From positions 4,325-68,324 of IMG/VR virus record IMGVR_UViG_3300020047_008132: DNA of 64,000 nt; one strand, 5' to 3'. The notes beneath the pieces are model-generated. The model was not told the origin of the DNA, did not search any database, and worked only from the letters and a program-made list of their open reading frames with translations. Position numbers and translations under genes: made by a program. Below are positions 2,739 to 55,695 of this stretch, in pieces (within the stretch, counting starts at the first letter, position 1; each line of letters starts with the position of its first letter). Source of the DNA: a virus (lineage: Duplodnaviria; Caudoviricetes).

Positions 2739-2879
2739 ATTCAATTTAAACGGATATTATGGCTTATATATACTTATTATAAGCAATGCAAGCCGCCAAT
2801 TAAAAAAGCTGCCATAACCCCACCTCCTCCGCTACACGTGCCCACGCTCACGCTTTTTTGCCCACGCAGCAAGCACTGC

Positions 2880-3722
2880 TTATAACACCAAGTTTGTGCC
2901 ATTTGTAAAAAATTGTTTTATATTTTGCTTCATTTTTAAAACTTTAAAGAAAAAACCCACCGCACTAGAGTAACTAAAAAAGTGTAGTCTGACTTATAAA
3001 GTCACGGTAGCGTTGCTCCTGCTTATCAAAATACTCTTTATCAATTTCAAAGGCGGTAAAGTCCATCTTGTATTTGTGTGCTGAAATACGGTTAGAGCCT
3101 GAGCCTAAATGCGTGTCAATTACTTTCATTCCTTCTTCGGCATAGTTTTTATATATCCAGTCATATAATGCAACCGGCTTTTGTGTAGGGTGTGTTTTCT
3201 TTTCTCCTTGTGGATTATTCAAATATCCAAACCCAATCCAGTCATAGGTGAATCTTCTCAAGATACAATTAAATGAAGTCCACGCAAGTTCACCGTCTGA
3301 AAAGTTTGTATTATTTGCATTCGTTATTTTTTTATCCCAAAAAATCCATCCCTTCTTAGGTGGCAGTAAGTCTGCAAAATAATTACCTCCCCATACAATT
3401 TGATTCTTTGAAACGCGTTGAAGTTCGGCAAAGTATTCATCACTTGGTCGTTCATTATCCCATCCTTTTTTATCATGGTGCTGTTTATTTGAAAAAGTGT
3501 TTGCCTTACCTCCTTTGCCTTTTACGGTGGTATTCCCATCAAAGTTGATTCCGTATGGCGGGTCAACGACAGCCAAGTCGAAATAATTATCAGGAAACTG
3601 TTTCATTCCTTCGACACAATCAGAATTAAATACAATAGAACCCACGCTTTTTTTCTTTAAAGTTTTAAAAATTCATAAGGTCAATTTTTTACAAACGGAC
3701 ACAAACTCTTGCAGCGTTAGCT
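2880..3722 (+). repeat. attC-like site with a gene inside its loop
   Basis: R'' TTATAAC 2880-2886, R' GTTAGCT 3716-3722; arms ~2890-2955 and ~3648-3708 are inverted repeats (AGTTTGTG-CCATTTGTAAAAAATTG; TTTTTAAAACTTTAAAGAAAAAA). Confidence 0.75.
2974..3645 (-). CDS. DNA N4-cytosine/N6-adenine methyltransferase (beta class)
   Basis: DPPY motif, HPTQKP, then DTHLGSGS SAM-binding motif; GTG start. Confidence 0.9.
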   Translation of the reverse strand: MGSIVFNSDCVEGMKQFPDNYFDLAVVDPPYGINFDGNTTVKGKGGKANTFSNKQHHDKKGWDNERPSDEYFAELQRVSKNQIVWGGNYFADLLPPKKGWIFWDKKITNANNTNFSDGELAWTSFNCILRRFTYDWIGFGYLNNPQGEKKTHPTQKPVALYDWIYKNYAEEGMKVIDTHLGSGSNRISAHKYKMDFTAFEIDKEYFDKQEQRYRDFISQTTLF

Positions 3723-4058
3723 GCCATTTGCGGACGACAAAACATATCTCGGCATTGGTTCGCCTTGATGCTGTTCGATACCTTTAAACACCAGCGTTTT
3801 GTTTTCAATAAGCGGACGTATTACTTCGTGCCGTACAAGGCAATCAGCATACATAAACATTCCACGTTCAGGCAAAAACCAAACGCTGTGAAACATCCCC
3901 TGCGGTTTGTAAAATTCATCTTCTAACGATAGTTCGTGTTCAATCGCTTCAATTATTTTACGTTGGCTTAAATCAATTGAATAATCAAATTTTTCTCCAC
4001 CTACGCCTGACGACCTATGTAGGCCATCATTAAATCCGTTTAATAAATTCTTTTCCAT
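3717..4058 (-). CDS. Hypothetical cassette protein
   Basis: ORF fills the cassette; stop TAA lies in the complement of the GTTAG core site. Confidence 0.6.
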   Translation of the reverse strand: MEKNLLNGFNDGLHRSSGVGGEKFDYSIDLSQRKIIEAIEHELSLEDEFYKPQGMFHSVWFLPERGMFMYADCLVRHEVIRPLIENKTLVFKGIEQHQGEPMPRYVLSSANGS

Positions 4059-4121
4059 TTTGTCAAGTTATATGTTTACTTTTTAATCATTTTGTCAAGT
4101 TATAGGCTGACTAAAAACGGC

Positions 4122-4252
4122 AGCTAACAATATATTGGCAAAAGGCGGGCTGACGGTAATTAGAATGAGCATTTGCACTTTTGGCAACATTCCTACATAA
4201 CTCATCAGTAGTGCTATATTTCCCGCCCTTCGCCAATATTTTGCCGTTAGCG
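4122..4252 (+). repeat. attC-like site
   Basis: AGCTAAC...GTTAGCG; stem ATATTGGCAAAAGGCGGG / CCCGCCCTTCGCCAATAT. Confidence 0.85.
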
Positions 4253-4274
4253 GTAATTGCACCCCACCGCACGG

Positions 4275-4667
4275 TTAGAGTTCTTTATGAATTTGTAAAT
4301 AGTCCTCCAATTCGGTTAATGTATTTGCAGGTATATTAAAACCATCACTTTGCAAGTCGGGATTTTCTACCTTCATATTATCAAACATCCATCTCATAGT
4401 TTCTTGGGCGTTTTTTAATAAATTGAATTGCTTTGAAATATCCCTTTCATTTTGGTTTTTAAAAAATGCGTATTCTAAACAAGTTCTTGAGCAATAGTGG
4501 TGCATCCCATTACTTTCAATAATATGGCTATCTGTGCTATCATTTTTTATTTTGCCATTAATTATAATCCACCTAAATGGATGCTCTTTAATATCATTAA
4601 CCTCATAGGTATTTTCGCATTTTTTACCATCTTCAAAACGGTGTCCATCACATTTGTATATTAACAT
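4275..4667 (-). CDS. Hypothetical cassette protein with Cys/His (possible Zn) motifs
   Basis: YKCDG..KCE and HYCSRTC. Confidence 0.55.
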   Translation of the reverse strand: MLIYKCDGHRFEDGKKCENTYEVNDIKEHPFRWIIINGKIKNDSTDSHIIESNGMHHYCSRTCLEYAFFKNQNERDISKQFNLLKNAQETMRWMFDNMKVENPDLQSDGFNIPANTLTELEDYLQIHKEL

Positions 4668-4715
4668 ATTATTTTAGTTTTAAATTGTTTCTAATTCATT
4701 CGCTGTGCAACTAAC

Positions 4716-4772
4716 CGCTAACAGCGTATAAAAGCCATTGAAAAAACGGCTCTTATACGCAAAACGTTATGC
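4716..4772 (+). repeat. Short attC-like site (57 bp)
   Basis: CGCTAAC A GCGTATAAAAGCCA-loop-CGGCTCTTATACGC AAAAC GTTATGC. Confidence 0.85.
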
Positions 4773-5048
4773 GAAACCGCCAACATTCGTATAAGAAAAA
4801 AGCGTTTGTTGATATTCTGCAGAAAGATTTTTTACTTTCTCTAATTCATTCGGCATATTTTTATACAAGCCTTTTTGTCTATTTTGTTCACATTGAAATA
4901 AATATCTCTGAATGCTCCAAAGTTTTAAAAAATCTTTCTTTGGAATATCCCAATTTCTTAAATTGTAAAATCCTTGCAAAGGTTGGTATTCGCATAACAC
5001 AGGTTTTGCAATACCGTGCTTGAATGTTTCAGTTGGACTATTTTTCAT
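4767..5048 (-). CDS. Hypothetical cassette protein starting inside the attC loop
   Basis: ATG at 5048 within attC 4992-5123; stop overlaps GTTAT core at 4766. Confidence 0.55.
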   Translation of the reverse strand: MKNSPTETFKHGIAKPVLCEYQPLQGFYNLRNWDIPKKDFLKLWSIQRYLFQCEQNRQKGLYKNMPNELEKVKNLSAEYQQTLFSYTNVGGFA

Positions 5049-5123
5049 TTTAATAAAGTTTTTTGTTAGTATTTAGTTTCGTTGTCTTTAGGCACGGCAT
5101 CGCAAAGCCTTTTAACGTTATGT
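4992..5123 (+). repeat. attC-like site
   Basis: GCATAAC...GTTATGT; stem GGTTTTGCAATACCGTGC / GCACGGCATCGCAAAGCC. Confidence 0.85.
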
Positions 5124-5170
5124 GCAATTTTCTTTTTCATTTTTTTTCCCACCGCACAATGATTAAATGA

Positions 5171-5995
5171 TTAATCGAAGTTGCATATAGCACAATTTTG
5201 TTTTTCAAAGTTCACTTCCCAATCTTCACGACCAAATGATAAATAAGTTTTAATAAAATCTTCTTCATCTCTGCCCCAGTGCTTTTTTAGTCTGTTGCTT
5301 AAATCAACTGCCCTTTGCCAATATTCAGGGTAATGTATTCGCACCAATTCAAAATCCGACTTCTGCATATTTTTGCATGGTAAGCAGTTGTTATGGGTAA
5401 ATACTCTTTTCCCTGCTTCGTTTCTGATGTCGTAAATTTTCGGATACCAACCTATTTTTTCTTTCACAATTCCAAAACACCATTCATTGTCTTTATCTAT
5501 AATTGGAAATGCTTTGTAATAAATCATGTTTGGTGCATTGACAAACATTCGCTTTTCCCTTCGCCTTTCGTTTCTCACATAGCCCACCAAATCAATTTCA
5601 ATTCGTTTTTCTGCCATGTAATTTACAATCGGAATTACTTTTAATTCCTTTGTGCAAATTGGAATAGCTGCCGGGTGTGGTATCATTTTCATTTTCTCAA
5701 AATGAGCAATGATGCTATTCCAAGTTTCTTTGTAGAAAACGGTTTTGAAATTTTTCTTTGCAAACTCAACCCCTGCCAAAACAAAATCTCTTGTGTCTGG
5801 GCTATGTTCTTCAAAGTGTGCATAGAATAAATGCAACTCCAAAGGCTTTTTTTCTTCTGCTATTTCAGCCAACCAACACAGCACAGCCATTGAGTTTATG
5901 CCACCTGATAAACCAATCATAATTTTCTTATCTGAGAAATCACCTTTCTCAATCATAAGTGCTGCTGTATCTCTTTCAAATAATTCTATCTGCAT
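5171..5995 (-). CDS. PAPS reductase-like (PP-loop) protein
   Basis: IGLSGGINS PP-loop, PICTKELK, GYVRNERRR, C-terminal NCLPC; ATG at 5995 preferred. Confidence 0.75.
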   Translation of the reverse strand: MQIELFERDTAALMIEKGDFSDKKIMIGLSGGINSMAVLCWLAEIAEEKKPLELHLFYAHFEEHSPDTRDFVLAGVEFAKKNFKTVFYKETWNSIIAHFEKMKMIPHPAAIPICTKELKVIPIVNYMAEKRIEIDLVGYVRNERRREKRMFVNAPNMIYYKAFPIIDKDNEWCFGIVKEKIGWYPKIYDIRNEAGKRVFTHNNCLPCKNMQKSDFELVRIHYPEYWQRAVDLSNRLKKHWGRDEEDFIKTYLSFGREDWEVNFEKQNCAICNFD

Positions 5996-6054
5996 ACTTT
6001 TAATGATTAAATTGATTAATTGCCCACGCACAAAAAATGAAAAAGAAAACAGAC

Positions 6055-6186
6055 ACATAACAGCACCTAACCAAAATTGGCGGCTTAGCGGTAAATTGAA
6101 CTGTATTGCTTCGTATCATCATTTGTGCTTGTTTGAAAATTTGTACTTCGTAATCGCCAACTTCGGTTAGCCGCAAAACGTTAATC
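6055..6186 (+). repeat. attC-like site, right end of array 1
   Basis: ACATAAC...GTTAATC; stem CTAACCAAAATTGGCG / CGCCAACTTCGGTTAG. Confidence 0.85.
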
Positions 6187-6646
6187 AAAACCTAATCCAT
6201 GCACCAATACTTGGCGCAAAAGTGAAATGGTTACTCATTGTAAGTTCATACCTGATCGCGATATCCCTGTTTACTTCCTGAATGATACTGCCCCCGAATG
6301 TCATGCCATGACCAACGCGGTCAGATTCATCCGTCGGCATTGAGGTAAGACTGTATCCAATGATTAACCTTGCGGTGATGTCTTTGTCAAGTTCAAAGCT
6401 GTAACCGGTGCGAACCTGGAGCACCTTAGGAGCCGATACTTCCGGCGAAAGCGTGATGATCTGATTGTATTCGAGGAAAGATGGTCCAATGTTCCTGCCA
6501 GCCGTTAAGTTGGCGGAAAGGTATGATGAACTTCCTGGGACGTAGCCCAACGCAAGCGAGGCGTAGCCGTTGTGTTTGTTTATTTGGGCAAAGGAGGCCA
6601 TGGAAAAGATGATCAGCAGTAGGGTGATGATGGTTATGGTTTTCAT
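6185..6646 (-). CDS. Secreted/outer-membrane beta-barrel-like protein
   Basis: Sec signal ending SFA-Q, amphipathic beta pattern, C-terminal aromatic WIRF. Confidence 0.55.
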   Translation of the reverse strand: MKTITIITLLLIIFSMASFAQINKHNGYASLALGYVPGSSSYLSANLTAGRNIGPSFLEYNQIITLSPEVSAPKVLQVRTGYSFELDKDITARLIIGYSLTSMPTDESDRVGHGMTFGGSIIQEVNRDIAIRYELTMSNHFTFAPSIGAWIRF

Positions 6647-7442: not shown

Positions 7443-8339
7443 CTATAACGCCGTCCTTAATCCAATAGGAACAACAACATCAGGAACCGGGCGCACCAAA
7501 TGCCCGCATTGATACCCACCGGCATATACCGGGAAGTTGTACTGATCCGTTCCGGCAATAAGCCCATACGGCAGTCCTGTCTTATCATATACGGCAATCT
7601 CTTTTCCGTCAATATCCCCTTTCAAAACAGTTGTAAACTCTGACCGATGTATATACCGCTTCTTGACCATGTGAACACAGAACTCCCGCGAGGTCTTAAT
7701 AAGCGATCCTGAGTATTCAAACCAATTCCAGCCCAGGTCATCAGATACAATTTGCCCATACTGCCGGTTGTACTGATTGATTGAATCGGTTACAATCTGC
7801 TTACTATACTTCAACAGCTTGCCATCCCCTGCATCTGTATTCGTGATAAACTCCCGCATCTGACCTACAAACTTCGTAATGGTCCCGCCGCCGGTTATAT
7901 TCTGCCTGAGTATATCCTGTATTGGCTTTATCACGTTTTCTGTAATACCGCTTTCTGTCAGAGACTCTAATGCTGAATCAATAGACTGTAATTTTATCTC
8001 CTCATAAACTTTTCCGGCTGAAAATTCTGCTTGTAATGAATTAAAATACTTGTTTTGAAGTGCCGAAACGTTGTCGAACTGTTTAATGTACTTTGATACA
8101 TTTTTCAGGTATTCTTTGGAAAGTATGATCTTTCGAAGCTGTGTCTTAATCTTCCCAATGGTGCGGATATTGGCAATGTTATTCTTTATCCGGCCATTGC
8201 TTACCTCGAGGTCTTTTATCAGACCAACCACCTCGGCAAATATCTTATCCTGAATCCCAGGGACGGCTTTAATAAAGTCGTTTACCGAGGATTCGAGTAC
8301 ATAAGTTAGCGCATTTACTATTTTGTCGGTTTCGGTCAT
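7443..8339 (-). CDS. Phage minor head protein (SPP1 gp7/Mu F-like)
   Basis: Directly after portal; SREFC and C-terminal GGYQCGH motif. Confidence 0.75.
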   Translation of the reverse strand: MTETDKIVNALTYVLESSVNDFIKAVPGIQDKIFAEVVGLIKDLEVSNGRIKNNIANIRTIGKIKTQLRKIILSKEYLKNVSKYIKQFDNVSALQNKYFNSLQAEFSAGKVYEEIKLQSIDSALESLTESGITENVIKPIQDILRQNITGGGTITKFVGQMREFITNTDAGDGKLLKYSKQIVTDSINQYNRQYGQIVSDDLGWNWFEYSGSLIKTSREFCVHMVKKRYIHRSEFTTVLKGDIDGKEIAVYDKTGLPYGLIAGTDQYNFPVYAGGYQCGHLVRPVPDVVVPIGLRTAL

Positions 8340-10081
8340 GCAACATCATTCATTACTTCTTGCTTCTCTGAATTAGCCTTAATGATCGCATCAGCATAGC
8401 CGGCAATAGTCTTAGCCTTTTCTTCGTACGACTTAGCCGCAAATTCAGCATCTGCATTCATGGCCATCTTCACAAATGATGCAATGTTGCAGGAAATAAT
8501 GTAATCCTTTTCAGTAATTCCGCCGTTTTGCAGTTGTAACACCTTATCATCCTCAGCAACACCGGCCAATGGATTGAGGATGTAGATATTTACCATGAAA
8601 TCCTTTGTCTTATCATCAGCGTTGAACTTGGCATTTGCGTAGTCAATTTCCAAGGCCGATACGATAGATGGATTCACCTTTGCATTTTTGGCTGAAGTCA
8701 ATTCCTGCAAAATGTAGTTAGATGAAATCAGGTCGAACTTTTGTGGAACCGGTATCTTTGGCAACTGCTTTTCTCGCTTATCTTTATCAACATTCGCGTA
8801 GCGGTAGTCATTGATCATCTTGTAAACACGATCAATCACCCTTACAATATCCTCTGCAATAGTGGCTACAAAGGTATTGAGTGAATCACGGTCCACCTCC
8901 TTCGACACGCCGGATTCAGAAAGCGGCACGTCGGCCAGAAATTCCATGTTGATCGCCGCCAGTCCATCAAAGATATGCGCCTTCACCCTCTTATCCTGAA
9001 TCTCCACGATCTTCGTGTCCTTCGTGACATATCCCACAAATGGGTTAGGCAGTGCCTGCTCTGTGGCTGAATTAGGCCTTAGTGAGATATGCTCGTAAGG
9101 ATTGAATGGTATATATCCGGTTCCCTTGCACGTTTCGCATTGAGATGAAATTATTTGTCCCTCTTTGCCTTTGGTAGTTACCGTTCCGGTTGAATGGCAC
9201 TTCTTACAGTCCTGGTTAGTATATGACCACATCAGCGAGTGAATATGCTGAACAACCTCTGCTTGTAAGTCTGAATATTCCCTTACCGCTTCATCCCATG
9301 AAGGAATACAATTTATAATCCTGGATTCAAAGATGAAATGCCTTTCGTACACTTTAAAGAATTGCGCCCCTATCATAAAGGCCGGAAGATACCCAAGCCC
9401 ATGCTCAAAAGGCTCGCCTGCCATCATTGCGCCTTTTTCATCAATCTGCTCATACCGTGTTATGGACTGCGCCGTAACTGCATAAAGGATAAGTCCATCC
9501 TTCACCTGTCCGCCCTTTGTTTTATAGGTGGAAGTGTTTTGTGAACGCAACACAGCATATTCGCCAGGCATGAAATCCCAAACCTGATCAGAATTGAAAA
9601 CGAAAGGATATGGTTTGTAATAGTCGGCCTCCTCAACAGTCTGCTCCAATGGCATAACTAATATGACGCTGTTCGGATCAACCACGTAGTTTTTTAAAAG
9701 GACATTAAACGCCCAATTTGTAACGCTATTGAAATCCAGCGGGAAGTTCTTTTCGCAATAATCATTAAGCCTTTCACCTTCACGCCCGGAGGTAAGACTT
9801 TTTTCATCATACTTCACATACCACCCTTCAGCCTTGCGTATCTTGCCAAGTTCGGTCAGCACCTTTCCAAATGCGCCTTTCGTCTTTGACTTATAAATAG
9901 CCTCTCTGTATTTCTTGATGGTGTCTGATTCACCGGGCCTGCGTTCCCCAATCAGTGTTTTTGGAAACTCTCCGTCAGAATGAATTTTAATTTCAGCAGC
10001 CATTTTACAAGTTAAAGGGTAGGCCGGATGCCTGTATGGTGATTTGCCTATGTACTTTTCAATCTTAATTTCTTCCATCAT
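8336..10081 (-). CDS. Portal protein with inserted CxxC zinc finger
   Basis: 581 aa, precedes minor head gene; CKKCHSTG..CETCKGTG insert. Confidence 0.65.
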   Translation of the reverse strand: MMEEIKIEKYIGKSPYRHPAYPLTCKMAAEIKIHSDGEFPKTLIGERRPGESDTIKKYREAIYKSKTKGAFGKVLTELGKIRKAEGWYVKYDEKSLTSGREGERLNDYCEKNFPLDFNSVTNWAFNVLLKNYVVDPNSVILVMPLEQTVEEADYYKPYPFVFNSDQVWDFMPGEYAVLRSQNTSTYKTKGGQVKDGLILYAVTAQSITRYEQIDEKGAMMAGEPFEHGLGYLPAFMIGAQFFKVYERHFIFESRIINCIPSWDEAVREYSDLQAEVVQHIHSLMWSYTNQDCKKCHSTGTVTTKGKEGQIISSQCETCKGTGYIPFNPYEHISLRPNSATEQALPNPFVGYVTKDTKIVEIQDKRVKAHIFDGLAAINMEFLADVPLSESGVSKEVDRDSLNTFVATIAEDIVRVIDRVYKMINDYRYANVDKDKREKQLPKIPVPQKFDLISSNYILQELTSAKNAKVNPSIVSALEIDYANAKFNADDKTKDFMVNIYILNPLAGVAEDDKVLQLQNGGITEKDYIISCNIASFVKMAMNADAEFAAKSYEEKAKTIAGYADAIIKANSEKQEVMNDVA

Positions 10082-22555: not shown

Positions 22556-23905
22556 TTATGTAAGTAGGTATTGCTTTTCAAAGCCTGAAAGTTCCATATT
22601 ACAAACATACCGCCAGCAGTCCAAGACGTCTGATTGCTGCTTCGGGTCCTTCCTGTCTTCCTTCAAAATTGTCCCATCAGCCAGCGATTGCACGTTTTCC
22701 AAGTCGAATATCAAATCCCTGGCATTCTGTTCATCTATTTCAACGGTGTAGTGTTGCAAAATAAGATTAACCAAAGTCCGGTTATCTTCCAGCCGGGGAT
22801 TAACACGTGTCTTTATTTGTCCCGGCCCAATCCTTAGCTTATGCTGAATCATGGTGTAGTGTGTCACCTGTTCCTTAAGAATTGACTGCCTGTTATGGCC
22901 TGAGTTATCCCCTGTGACAATGTAAAGCGACCCGGGGTACTTTATCAGTATCCGGTTGCAAAGTTCGTCCACGCCTGAGTTAGGTATCTTTATTGATTCC
23001 AGCGCCCTGATTGTGTTATGTGGCCGGTCGTGCTGTACCACCACGCAAGATATGGGATTCCTATTGAAGTCAAAGGATATTATTAGCGGCAGCGTATGGT
23101 CAACTTGTAATCCGGGTTTAACATGCTTTTTTCTGTCAAAAGCAAACGCCCACGGTGATTCATTAAGTTTGTTACCCCATAATCCAAGCGTGAACACATT
23201 GTACCAATAGTAATTGGTTTCGGCAAATGATTCATGTATGGCAGTCCGTTGCGATGTTATGAATGGGTTGTCATGGTAGGTTGTATGAGTTGCCCTGTAA
23301 GTCAGTTCAAAGCTTTTCCCCCCGGCTGAATATTGCTTTGTATTGGTAAATGACTTTTCCGCCGTGTGCGAAAAGAAGTTTTTATAAATCCAAAAGTCGG
23401 TATAATCAGGAGTGTCACATTCCGGATTGAAAGTAAAATCTAACTTTATGCGCCCCTGGTTGGACCGGAGCGAAGATATCAGGAAGATGAAGTCTTCCTC
23501 TGTGATCTGATTGCCTTCCTCCACCCATGCGCCTGATGGGTTGGAAATGGATTTCAGCTTTGCCGGTTCATCGAGTCCACGCGCAATAAACTTATTGCCG
23601 TTTACGCAACGGATTTCCAAAGGTGAAACATTAAACACAAATAGCGATTCCAGCCCCCATTCATAAACCACGTCTTTGATGGTCTGAAATTGGCTGTCCT
23701 TAATCGTGTTTGCTCCTTTTCTTACAAGAATATATCTGAAATAGTCTGATTCCAGGCATCTAAGCACAAGCCTTTGGGCTTCGTCGCGCGACTTCCCGGA
23801 ATCCCGGCCTCCGTAGATTAGGTCAATGTCAATACCGGTGTCATCGCGTAAGTGTTGGTAGCAAGGGAGGAAAACGTCTTCGTCAACTTCAATCTGAGTT
23901 GTCAA
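22556..23905 (-). CDS. terL: Terminase large subunit (PBSX-like)
   Basis: YGGRDSGKS Walker A, AWVEE Walker B, SFDFN RNase H-like nuclease. Confidence 0.92.
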   Translation of the reverse strand: MTTQIEVDEDVFLPCYQHLRDDTGIDIDLIYGGRDSGKSRDEAQRLVLRCLESDYFRYILVRKGANTIKDSQFQTIKDVVYEWGLESLFVFNVSPLEIRCVNGNKFIARGLDEPAKLKSISNPSGAWVEEGNQITEEDFIFLISSLRSNQGRIKLDFTFNPECDTPDYTDFWIYKNFFSHTAEKSFTNTKQYSAGGKSFELTYRATHTTYHDNPFITSQRTAIHESFAETNYYWYNVFTLGLWGNKLNESPWAFAFDRKKHVKPGLQVDHTLPLIISFDFNRNPISCVVVQHDRPHNTIRALESIKIPNSGVDELCNRILIKYPGSLYIVTGDNSGHNRQSILKEQVTHYTMIQHKLRIGPGQIKTRVNPRLEDNRTLVNLILQHYTVEIDEQNARDLIFDLENVQSLADGTILKEDRKDPKQQSDVLDCWRYVCNMELSGFEKQYLLT

Positions 23906-29838: not shown

Positions 29839-30261
29839 CTACAAAATGGCAATCTGTTCATTGGGTAATGGTATGTTAATTCCGAACTCCTCACTTGCAA
29901 ACTGCCTTACCTGATCGTAGTACTCCTCCGCTTCCACCGTTGACAACCCCGCACTACTTTTCACATATTCAAAGACTGCCCCGGTTTCAACATTGACCTT
30001 TTCAGCTTTCAGGAACCGGCTTTTTAGAACCAGGTGCATTTCATCCTTTGTGAACCCGGTATATTCGGCCATCATGGTCACAATAAGCCAATAGTACCGG
30101 TTCTGCTGAACGCTCCTGTGCTTTCTTTTCCGGCGGACAATAATTTCTATTGACTCCCCTTTGAAAAACTGCCTAATCTCATTTCCGAACTTATGACGCG
30201 GTAACCCTTGTATGGCTCCGTCGTCAGATACCTTGCAGAAGTATTGCAGTTCAAATTTCAT
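29839..30261 (-). CDS. NinB-like protein
   Basis: RSVQQNRYYW..SSAGLS..YYDQV. Confidence 0.75.
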   Translation of the reverse strand: MKFELQYFCKVSDDGAIQGLPRHKFGNEIRQFFKGESIEIIVRRKRKHRSVQQNRYYWLIVTMMAEYTGFTKDEMHLVLKSRFLKAEKVNVETGAVFEYVKSSAGLSTVEAEEYYDQVRQFASEEFGINIPLPNEQIAIL

Positions 30262-45922: not shown

Positions 45923-46450
45923 TTAGTGGCAATAGTTAAGAAACTCCGTCTTACCATTGTAACCTTTCGACATTTGGAGAATACAGGTTTGCACCCTTGC
46001 TCCGTTAAATATGCTTCTTGGTAAGTGAGTAATGCTTACCAATCCAAACTCAATGATATCACTCGTTCTTTTTTGCCCGTTTATCACAGTCAACCAAGGC
46101 ATTAAAGCAATAATGTTATCGCTCATTTCCATACACTCATACAAAATTTTATATCCTTTTGCCATTGGCGTAAATGGTGGGTTCATTACCACCCAATCAA
46201 ATCTCTGTTTTTCCATAGCAAAAAAATCTTGTGGCTCAATTACAGTTCCTTTATGCTTTAATGCCTTTACCAAGTTTCCTAATCCGCTTGTAGGTTCTAA
46301 AATTGTTCCTGCGTTATCAGGCAAAAAAGAACTCATATAGTTGCAAACCTTTTCTGGTGTTTGAAATCCTGCAATACTACTGCCACTAACATCCGCTATA
46401 AGTAATGGCGGGTTCTGTGGTAAATCAATGTTTTTGCTTTCTATTATCAT
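45923..46450 (-). CDS. Small N6-adenine DNA methyltransferase-like protein
   Basis: FQTP, ILEPTSGLG, VMNPPF; start inside attC loop, stop in core site. Confidence 0.8.
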   Translation of the reverse strand: MIIESKNIDLPQNPPLLIADVSGSSIAGFQTPEKVCNYMSSFLPDNAGTILEPTSGLGNLVKALKHKGTVIEPQDFFAMEKQRFDWVVMNPPFTPMAKGYKILYECMEMSDNIIALMPWLTVINGQKRTSDIIEFGLVSITHLPRSIFNGARVQTCILQMSKGYNGKTEFLNYCH

Positions 46451-46512
46451 TTGTGTATAATTCAAAGTGAGTAGTCCTAAATCCGCCACTACTCATAGCG
46501 GAAACGTTATAA
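46384..46512 (+). repeat. attC-like site
   Basis: CACTAAC...GTTATAA; stem CCGCTATAAGTAATGGCGG / CCGCCACTACTCATAGCGG. Confidence 0.85.
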
Positions 46513-47154
46513 GCAAGCTGCTACATTCCTGCTGCGAATGAAAGTTCCCCATTGTTCAGCCATAGCTTTTGCCACCCCTGTGAAAGTTTTTGAGCTTTCC
46601 TTTGCGTTTTTTGCAATCCCCATGTTATAACTTTGTCCACGTTTCTTTCCTCCAGTATTACTCGGCAAATACGGCTTATAGTTGCTCTTAATGTCTGTCG
46701 GCTTTAATAGTGGCAAATTTTTCAACCACAATAAAGTTCGTTTACTGTATTCGTGTCCATACTCGTAGGGCTGTATCGCTTGGCTATGTTTTGGTAATTC
46801 AACTACTTTTAATGGTGTTGGGTTTTCAACTGCAATATATTCAATAGGCGCGTTAAGCAGTTCCAAAAACATAGCTTTCGCTTCCATTGCTTTTTCGTAC
46901 CTATCTTGGCACAAATTACCTGCTGTTGGGTACATCCATCTTGCTCCAGCCCTACTCATATAAGTGCAAGGCGGGTGTGCTATCATCACATCATATTTGC
47001 CACTATAAGCCTCTTTAACTGCATCGCCTACAATATGCCATTCGGGTCTACCTCCACTACATTCTTGTAGGTCGCAACTATAAGCCTCAAATCCTAATTC
47101 TCGGAAAGCTCTGCAAACTTCTTGGCTCTCCTCACAAGCTATTAATATTTTCAT
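46507..47154 (-). CDS. C5-cytosine DNA methyltransferase-like protein
   Basis: ILIACEES, HPPCTY, IAVENP, RSKT-like SKTF; stop in core site. Confidence 0.8.
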   Translation of the reverse strand: MKILIACEESQEVCRAFRELGFEAYSCDLQECSGGRPEWHIVGDAVKEAYSGKYDVMIAHPPCTYMSRAGARWMYPTAGNLCQDRYEKAMEAKAMFLELLNAPIEYIAVENPTPLKVVELPKHSQAIQPYEYGHEYSKRTLLWLKNLPLLKPTDIKSNYKPYLPSNTGGKKRGQSYNMGIAKNAKESSKTFTGVAKAMAEQWGTFIRSRNVAACL

Positions 47155-47191
47155 TTCAATTTAAGTTTCTTTTTAATTAACCGCAGCCAGC

Positions 47192-47322
47192 TTATAACAC
47201 GTGTTTTGTGCAATAGGGGCTGTGGTGGTTTATTCAAGTTTCTGCTTCTAATCAAGGTCTGTGGTAGGTTGAAGGTTTCGTTTCCAAAATCCCCTACTGC
47301 ACAAAGCACCTTAACGTTACCT
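47192..47322 (+). repeat. attC-like site, right end of array 2
   Basis: TTATAAC...GTTACCT; stem GTGTTTTGTGCAATAGGGG / CCCCTACTGCACAAAGCAC. Confidence 0.85.
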
Positions 47323-55354: not shown

Positions 55355-55558
55355 ATGTCCACTATACATATTGGGCGTTTGGTAGAAAGGTTGGTTGAGG
55401 AAAAGCCAATGAAGAAAAACGTATTTGCCAAAGCCATGAATTACTCGCCTACTAACATTAGCAGCCTGTTTGCCCGTGAGGATTGGCATGTAGGCATGGT
55501 AGAACAAGCCGGTGCTATAAATTATACGGCAGTAAGCATACCGGTGGAAAGAATTTAA
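55355..55558 (+). pseudogene. Truncated XRE repressor
   Basis: IHIGRLVERL..FAKAMNYSPTNISSLF HTH; ends abruptly at the integrase remnant. Confidence 0.6.
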
Positions 55559-55695
55559 CGAAGAAAACAAACGCGTACATTACTAAAGAACATTTTGGGC
55601 ACGGCAGTTTAAGCGTAACCGAAAATTACATAGATGATTTGGATAAAAACGAATTGAAGTTTTTACAAGTAGAATACCCGGAGTTTGCGGGGTAA
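55513..55695 (+). pseudogene. C-terminal remnant of a tyrosine integrase
   Basis: YKLYGSKHTGG..HFGHGSLSVTENY catalytic H/H/Y region only. Confidence 0.75.

Follow-up and report, generated by a model that had tools for sequence, protein, structure and literature searches.

Putative mobile cassettes of an integron-like system in a tailed Bacteroidota phage without a recombinase gene

We have analyzed two arrays of cassette-like units in a tailed phage, IMG/VR virus record IMGVR_UViG_3300020047_008132. The window, meaning the whole 64-kb stretch of DNA analyzed, spans bases 4325-68324 of this 68,324-bp record, which is rated 100% complete. Window positions 2777-6186 (array 1) most likely hold five mobile cassettes of an integron-like system, carried by a recombinase-less tailed phage of Bacteroidota (probably Flavobacteriaceae). 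The sites that delimit the cassettes form a covarying family common to phages and Bacteroidota chromosomes. Arrays of this family, detected with a covariance model built from phage sites only (R1), normally adjoin a small IntI-related tyrosine recombinase without the extra domain of that enzyme. Comparisons between phage sequences show that whole cassettes are gained, lost, replaced and shared between unrelated phages exactly at TAA|C.

We give about even chances to a broader proposal, in which Bacteroidota and their phages would share a second, largely unrecognised integron lineage with no extrahelical bases, a minimal recombinase and a mirror-image phage form read towards the recombinase. 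In that form the ORFs (open reading frames) would lie on the recombinogenic strand, each downstream of its own site. Many phages would carry complete versions with 10-15 cassettes, and others like this one would depend on a recombinase in trans; both within a phage lineage and from one to another, anti-restriction methylases and other small genes would be swapped. Bacteroidota and phages are considered poor in integrons, yet R1 detects arrays in about half of the 160 Bacteroidota genomes sampled, as well as in cultured Flavobacterium phages (genus Muminvirus) and dozens of IMG/VR phage contigs. These results suggest that an entire lineage escapes the standard attC models and the definition of IntI. 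The arrays would give phages a plug-in route for swapping DNA-modification genes. The family also bears on folded-DNA recognition by integron integrases, because sites without bulged bases go with an enzyme without the domain that reads such bases. Both Muminvirus and its Flavobacterium hosts are cultured, which makes the dependence on a recombinase, the choice of strand and the mirror-image cassettes directly testable.

A covarying family of TAAC/GTTA sites

The window was scanned with the pattern TAAC-(0-5 nt)-stem...stem-(0-8 nt)-GTTA, using 20 composition-preserving shuffles as the control. Exactly six sites were found in the 64 kb, four in array 1 and two in array 2 (46387-46509 and 47195-47319), whereas 19 of the 20 shuffles gave no site and the other gave one (~0.05 per shuffle against six real sites). 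A previous sequence-only reading of this DNA had reported five palindromes in array 1, and all were confirmed, either by the scanner or, for the one at 2880-3722, through nested inverted repeats (I1, I9 and I10). The palindromes were said to separate single-gene units; the one at 2880-3722 does not, as a whole methylase gene lies in its loop. A right spacer uniformly 4 nt longer than the left had also been described at four sites; the right side is indeed the longer one, but by 3-4 nt (0/3, 1/5, 2/6 and 1/5). All sites in the window share one polarity, with a spacer of 3-6 nt after TAAC and 0-2 nt before GTTA on the minus strand, and this strand gives the more stable DNA fold at all four foldable sites. 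The hairpin stems measure 13-24 bp and are free of bulged bases.

Twelve sites of ~125 nt from five phage contigs (the window and four others) were aligned end to end in alignment A2. With a 22-pair structure, 93.2% of cells are paired, compared with 66% for shuffled sequences and 38-48% for controls with a slid partner column, and compensatory changes on both sides occur at 17 of the 22 pairs. The earlier description of a structure-defined repeat that is not a sequence repeat is only partly right, since mean column identity is 55% and the loop motifs, an ATTRC element 5' of TAAC and two G.T pairs (present at their stem positions in 11/12 and 7/12 sequences) are conserved. TAAC and GTTA are invariant and paired in all 12 aligned sites, and the flanks match RYYYAAC...GTTRRRY only loosely. 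The extrahelical bases of canonical attC sites are missing: the 18 stem pairs of A2 are contiguous, with no conserved bulge. An unpaired central spacer is present. Its length is 5-8 nt next to R' and 1-3 nt next to R'', whereas canonical attC central spacers differ by ~1 nt between sides. R1 recovers sites on which it was not trained (site C of array 1, 43.7 bits), and the opposite strand scores far lower. No Rfam family matches the sites, and Rfam contains no attC family.

Cassette polymorphism and chained complementarity

A blastn search with window site F identified homologous sites in the genus Muminvirus, in 17 records of Flavobacterium phages that are in culture. Phage mumin6-1 has 11 R1 sites on the coding strand of a methylase-rich region (10-12 in its relatives), and no tyrosine recombinase was found in it. 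The isolates compared (mumin6-1 versus 6-3/6-4, mymlan6-2 and tooticki6-1) are 99.4-99.99% identical in the flanks. A 499-nt unit consisting of a hairpin and gp008 occurs in mumin6-1 and 6-2 and is missing from 6-3, 6-4, mymlan6-2 and tooticki6-1, with a TAACGTT repeat at its bounds. The unit of methylase gp006 is replaced in mymlan6-2, as is that of gp004 and gp005 in tooticki6-1. At every junction, identity starts or stops within TAAC(G/GTT), at the 5' end of a coding-strand hairpin, so the mobile unit is a hairpin together with the ORF downstream of it. Cassette gain and loss among related phages, which the sequence-only reading had proposed as a check, is apparent in these near-identical Flavobacterium phages, which differ by whole cassettes with junctions in the TAAC(GTT) core.

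The window methylase cassette at 46507-47154 in array 2 is common to mumin6-1 (gp004), and its ends are near-identical in the two phages. A run of 29 nt is invariant from the GTTA core into the body, and the match ends right after ...TTATAAC downstream and at the TAAC of the upstream site. No backbone relationship was detectable between the window phage and mumin6-1. Mobility was assessed on three cassette-level polymorphisms among Muminvirus isolates and on this one shared cassette in array 2.

Successive sites are chained by complementarity across the intervening gene. The GTTA extension of a window site pairs with the TAAC flank of the next over 8-10 nt by a mismatch-limited count, whereas the two boxes of a single site pair over only 4-7 nt, in keeping with the earlier observation that the first bases of each unit are complementary to its own R'' box. 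Read from the sequence and its inverted repeats, the first two bodies show 12-14 nt, and the body that carries the PP-loop gene described below shows as much as 30 nt at 70%. Overall, the inverted repeats around each gene lengthen the core by 8-30 nt. In Muminvirus the chained complementarity covers 4-14 nt, mostly 9-14, and in the host arrays L078 and L082 it covers 7-14 nt; the boxes of single sites pair over 3-9 nt overall. Such chaining is explained by one crossover at G|TT between successive sites, which would leave it behind. The cassette junctions lie at TAA|C on the coding strand, equivalent to G|TT on the plus strand, and TAA|C is the bottom-strand attC cut position of integron integrases. 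The integron-cassette layout is thereby supported through paired outer boxes, chained complementarity and cassette-level polymorphism at the core. With five sites in 3.4 kb and no integrase in the genome, array 1 is an attC cluster without an integron integrase (CALIN), provided that the sites are attC in the broad sense.

Two observations on other phage sequences may be added. The closest DNA match to window site F in the phage collection is a 78.5% identical site at 580327-580445 of LR756502.1, a 642-kb 'uncultured phage' record. In the three IMG/VR contigs of L003, L004 and L005, the arrays lie ≤2.2 kb from a contig end, which may reflect assembly breaks at repeats or a position near the genome termini.

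A linked recombinase, published precedents and competing explanations

The sequence-only reading had described a phage with no integrase. Searches of the 68-kb phage agree: the profiles PF00589, NF040815 and PF00239 gave no match, and tblastn with the array-linked recombinases described next returned only noise. A candidate integrase remnant at 55355-55695 was rejected, being undetectable by PF00589 or tblastn.

Host R1 arrays adjoin an IntI-related tyrosine recombinase of ~350 aa, whose best NCBIfam matches are NF040815 (206-216 bits; cut-off 220) and TIGR02249 (192-203 bits in two pieces; cut-off 265). Its catalytic residues are conserved and its C-terminus is IntI-like; the ~41-aa IntI insertion is missing, and the N-terminus is extended by ~75 aa. 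The enzyme was called at E≤1e-50, with Xer paralogues well apart at ~1e-35. Among 80 IntI-negative genomes, R1 sites were found in 22 of the 23 with this recombinase and in 20 of the 57 without it (odds ratio 41, p=3e-7), and in at least 13 genomes the distance between the recombinase gene and arrays is 0.4-11 kb. Relatives of ~265 aa, 40-47% identical to the array-linked enzyme, are encoded in 197 IMG/VR stretches, from which 80 loci were kept for flank analysis. R1 gave 261 matches in ~50 of these loci, nearly all directly upstream of the recombinase gene and on the same strand. The neighbouring genes are those of phages (helicase, nuclease, thymidylate synthase, Ant, sigma factor), and since R1 arrays stand beside the recombinase amid phage genes, many phages carry complete versions of the system. 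The window phage does not have the adjacent IntI with additional domain by which a 'complete integron' is defined.

Phage CALINs have been published. In 10,705 phage genomes, Qi et al. (2023, PMC9892861) found 17 CALINs, one of them in Polaribacter phage P12002L with methylase cassettes. The sequence-only reading described integrons as rare in phages and left novelty undecided, a statement that needs updating given this work, which includes a site of the present type in P12002L. We mapped that site, P12002L_attC1, to 30005-30059, between two methylase genes; its coding strand reads TAAC, 6 nt, stem, 3 nt, GTTA, and the second methylase block of P12002L has chained inverted repeats like those in the window. 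P12002L_attC1 was called by HattCI, and in the IntI1 assay of the same study it was the sole site of six that was not recombined (PMC9892861). The published phage CALINs resemble ours in being attC-bounded methylase cassettes in integrase-less phages, and P12002L_attC1 has the same architecture and polarity. They differ in that only two P12002L sites are given, the Muminvirus arrays (10-12 sites) are unlisted and IntI1 was the sole enzyme tested. The description of Muminvirus by Nilsson et al. (2020, PMC7077304) makes no mention of integrons or palindromes and links methylase content to plating efficiency on different hosts.

As in integron cassettes and CALINs (Cury 2016, PMC4889954; Neron 2022, PMC9024848), single-gene units lie between imperfect palindromes with RYYYAAC/GTTRRRY-like outer boxes, a hybrid R' matches the R'' of the next cassette, the crossover is at G|TT (bottom AA|C), and arms covary while loops vary. 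Arrays likewise occur with or without an adjacent tyrosine recombinase and carry diverse accessory cargo in hosts. Unlike integron sites, those of this family have no extrahelical bases, a strongly asymmetric spacer (5-8 versus 1-3 nt), two conserved G.T pairs and conserved loop motifs, and most are uniformly ~125 nt long. The linked recombinase is without the IntI-specific insertion and falls below the IntI cut-offs, and the phage ORF is on the folding strand, downstream of its own site. The array-linked enzyme fits the 'Integron-like' simple tyrosine recombinases of Smyshlyaev et al. (2021, PMC8138268), with NF040815 at 216 bits and TIGR02249 at 203 bits, both under cut-off. In the part of that paper drawn on here, insertion-less members are given no function or cognate site, whereas here they are tied to a site family and to arrays. 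A literature search for the variant, defined by site architecture, insertion-less recombinase and inverted phage cassettes, did not find it described. As a CALIN in a phage, array 1 is of a published kind; its site architecture, linked recombinase and inverted cassettes make it a distinct variant.

In the mechanism that we favor, each cassette reads on the coding strand as a folded recombination site (an R box of TAAC:GTTA, an unpaired spacer of 5-6 nt on the 5' side and 1-3 nt on the 3' side, a stem and a loop) followed by the ORF. The recombinase would act in trans, its source being the host chromosome, a prophage or a phage that infects the same cell. Its substrate would be the strand that folds, here the coding strand, so that phage cassettes mirror host cassettes.

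The sequence-only reading proposed instead that the phage collects cassettes with a host-supplied IntI, that is, that the sites are ordinary attC sites recombined by a canonical host integrase of the TIGR02249 type with its extra domain. Such enzymes are common, with TIGR02249 above its curated cut-off in 113/401 sampled Bacteroidota genomes; an IntegronFinder 2.0 survey of Bacteroidetes reported almost only In0 elements plus one complete integron. Two arrays beside canonical intI (genomes G181 and G197) are also similar in general architecture (TAAC, 7-nt spacer, stem...stem, 3-nt spacer, GTTA) and give 12-13 collinear weak R1 matches on the non-coding strand; the standard model may miss these 7-nt/3-nt spacer sites. 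R1 sites are, however, no commoner with IntI (44/80 IntI-positive versus 42/80 IntI-negative genomes, p=0.87) and track the insertion-less recombinase, and the strong R1 arrays of IntI-positive genomes lie on other contigs or far from intI. The sites lack the extrahelical bases that the IntI extra domain reads, and P12002L_attC1 failed with IntI1. We consider canonical IntI an unlikely agent for these reasons. In nine genomes the strict TAAC/GTTA scanner found almost no sites beside canonical intI. Around the intI of genome G390, a search for inverted repeats found no array, and a generic AAC...GTT fold scan was overly noisy in GC-rich DNA. One host array, L077 (G021:C1:1196000-1213000), has strong R1 sites 4-7 kb from a canonical intI; its cassette ORFs face intI, which is atypical.

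It is improbable, in our judgment, that the intergenic hairpins work with no site-specific recombinase at all, and merely offer short stretches of homology through which phages infecting the same cell could recombine by general or illegitimate routes. This has been proposed for the PeSL elements of T4-type phages, mobile regulatory cassettes that flank small ORFs as stem-loops and are believed to bring about modular shuffling; PeSLs are repeats of promoter and terminator sequence and work by homology, without TAAC/GTTA cores, chained complementarity or a linked recombinase. The lack of a recombinase in the window phage and in Muminvirus isolates would fit homology-driven exchange, as would the 7-nt direct repeat at the deletion junction and some sequence conservation in loops and flanks. 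Yet the junctions of all four independent pairs coincide to within a few bases, while the adjoining hairpin arms are unrelated in sequence; the complementarity across genes is what a single-strand crossover at one point predicts, and the sites are tightly linked to one recombinase family in hosts and other phages. A purely RNA-level role, with the hairpins as terminators, mRNA stabilisers or translation-start structures and the cassette look incidental, seems the least credible alternative, and we regard it as very improbable. It would account for the G.U-compatible pairs on the coding strand, which is the better folder, and for the several ORFs that start in A/T-rich loops. It leaves the cassette-precise polymorphisms, the shared cassettes and the recombinase linkage unexplained, there is no Rfam match, and host arrays carry the site family on the non-coding strand. 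The hairpins may have an additional RNA role in phages.

Several points weigh against our own reading of array 1 as mobile cassettes served by a recombinase in trans. The evidence for mobility is wholly comparative, and a 7-nt repeat could also give deletion by slippage or microhomology. R1 sites still occur in 20/57 genomes without the recombinase, many of which are drafts or metagenome-assembled genomes and some of which have single sites only. R1 E-values are rough, owing to a short calibration, and the site A hairpin, with its 700-nt loop, may not fold as drawn. The only experimentally tested site of this architecture failed with IntI1, which sets it apart from class 1 and says nothing positive about other enzymes.

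Orientation, cargo and layout of the arrays

In host arrays L077-L084, ORFs run opposite to the model strand in 8/8, which is the classical layout of ORF then attC on the top strand. In all phage arrays examined (the two in the window, L002-L005, L009, Muminvirus and eight recombinase-bearing IMG/VR arrays), ORFs are on the model strand, that is, the bottom-type, folding strand, downstream of their own site. The polarity of the chained complementarity is equal in hosts and phages, and the difference is therefore one of ORF orientation within the cassette and not of array orientation. Possible causes of the mirror image are a coding strand that is more single-stranded during phage replication or transcription, the use of the A/T-rich loop as a translation start, and mutual silencing of the phage and host cassette pools. 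One chromosome (G068:C1) has ~29 R1 sites, many of them singletons scattered over 5 Mb and not arrays, a distribution that suggests single-cassette insertions or independent spread of the sites.

The cargo of array 1, with a methylase and a PAPS-reductase-like enzyme, and the two methylases of array 2 (45923-47319, minus strand) suggest rapid swapping of DNA-modification genes against host restriction. In a sample of ten host cargo proteins, two are defence-related, a methylase and a restriction enzyme from one type II restriction-modification cassette. The others are an esterase, a pyridoxal phosphate (PLP) enzyme, a TauD-type fragment, an MFS transporter, an amidohydrolase, a beta-lactamase-family protein, an RHS protein and a further protein that matched no family. 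With 2/10 sampled proteins defence-related, the idea that host arrays are in general defence arrays was rejected. No homologues of the window cassette proteins were found in the fetched host arrays.

The window encodes a large terminase (22556-23905), a portal protein (8336-10081), a tape-measure-like protein and a primase, as expected of a tailed phage. When backbone proteins were used to look for close relatives, only distant phages came up (the exonuclease matched L001 and L002, and a 298-aa protein matched none). The exonuclease adjacent to the array was considered as a marker of a conserved insertion hotspot and rejected, because the exonucleases of the window and of Muminvirus have no detectable homology. 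The segment at 3-6 kb is 33-38% G+C, compared with 40-48% across most of the genome, and all of its genes are on the minus strand. Array 1 extends from a left array/backbone junction at 2776|2777 to a right junction at 6180|6181, just past the stop codon of a 153-aa backbone gene. That gene (6185-6646) has a signal-peptide-like N-terminus and a weak outer-membrane beta-barrel match, and its stop lies one base before the first core of the array.

All features of array 1 described here are on the minus strand. Cassette 1 includes a CCCAC(C)GC-rich body without an ORF (2777-2885), situated between the inverted repeats TTATAAGC... and ...GCTTATAA(C) (I8); comparable ORF-less bodies of ~90 bp are present in phage contig L002. 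AttC-like site A (2882-3719) has TAAC/GTTA cores and hand-read arms of ~75 nt that contain I1 (24 nt, 100%), I9 and I10, and its polarity is that of the other sites, with the long spacer 5' on the minus strand. Its loop holds the cassette 1 cargo, an N6/N4 DNA methyltransferase gene with a DPPY motif (2974-3606; PF01555 4e-11, phrog_23224 1.9e-40). Entire methylase genes lie within attC-like hairpin loops at window 2880-3722 and at 7680-8520 and 8600-9560 of L002, where they alternate with CCCACGC-rich, ORF-less bodies of ~90-110 bp.

Cassette 2 (3717-4246) carries a 113-aa ORF (3717-4058) whose stop codon is within the GTTA core. AttC-like site B lies at 4125-4249 (scanner score 15, R1 88.9 bits), with a DNA fold of -26.1 kcal/mol on the minus strand versus -21.7 on the plus strand. 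The cargo of cassette 3 (4247-4766) is a Cys-rich ORF of 130 aa (4275-4667), and a protein atlas search with the 113- and 130-aa proteins returned viral hypothetical clusters only. AttC-like site C (4719-4769; scanner 13, R1 43.7 bits) is a short form of 51 nt. Cassette 4 (4767-5117) has a putative 93-aa ORF (4767-5048) that starts within the loop of attC-like site D (4995-5120; scanner 16.5, R1 110.1 bits). Several Muminvirus ORFs also begin in the loop of their own hairpin, and gp008 and gp006 have a layout like that of the 93-aa ORF.

Cassette 5 (5118-6180) carries a PP-loop ATPase/PAPS-reductase-like protein with an SGGxNS motif (5171-5995; phrog_424 5e-14; 753 homologues), and attC-like site E lies at 6058-6183 (scanner 12.5, R1 118.5 bits). 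An inverted repeat of ~30 nt (I3, I6) flanks the gene, as do direct repeats of GTGCG(G)TGGG. Sites likewise flank its homologues in L003, L005 and L009, and homologues P0001 and P0002 are 97% and 79% identical. Homologues in ten bacterial contigs mostly have no sites nearby, and the gene is therefore not always cassette-borne.

CCCAC(C)GC, a motif whose coding-strand form is GTGCG(G)TGGG, occurs at window positions 2843, 2861, 2957, 3642, 4264, 5150 and 6025. Its copies form direct repeats just outside the methylase and PP-loop genes and also follow the 130-aa gene, and the PP-loop gene has an inner direct repeat, TTAATCAWTTAATCATT, on either side. The methylase genes of L002 are ringed by CCCAC(C)GC too, and L003 has TGTGTCCTC in its place.

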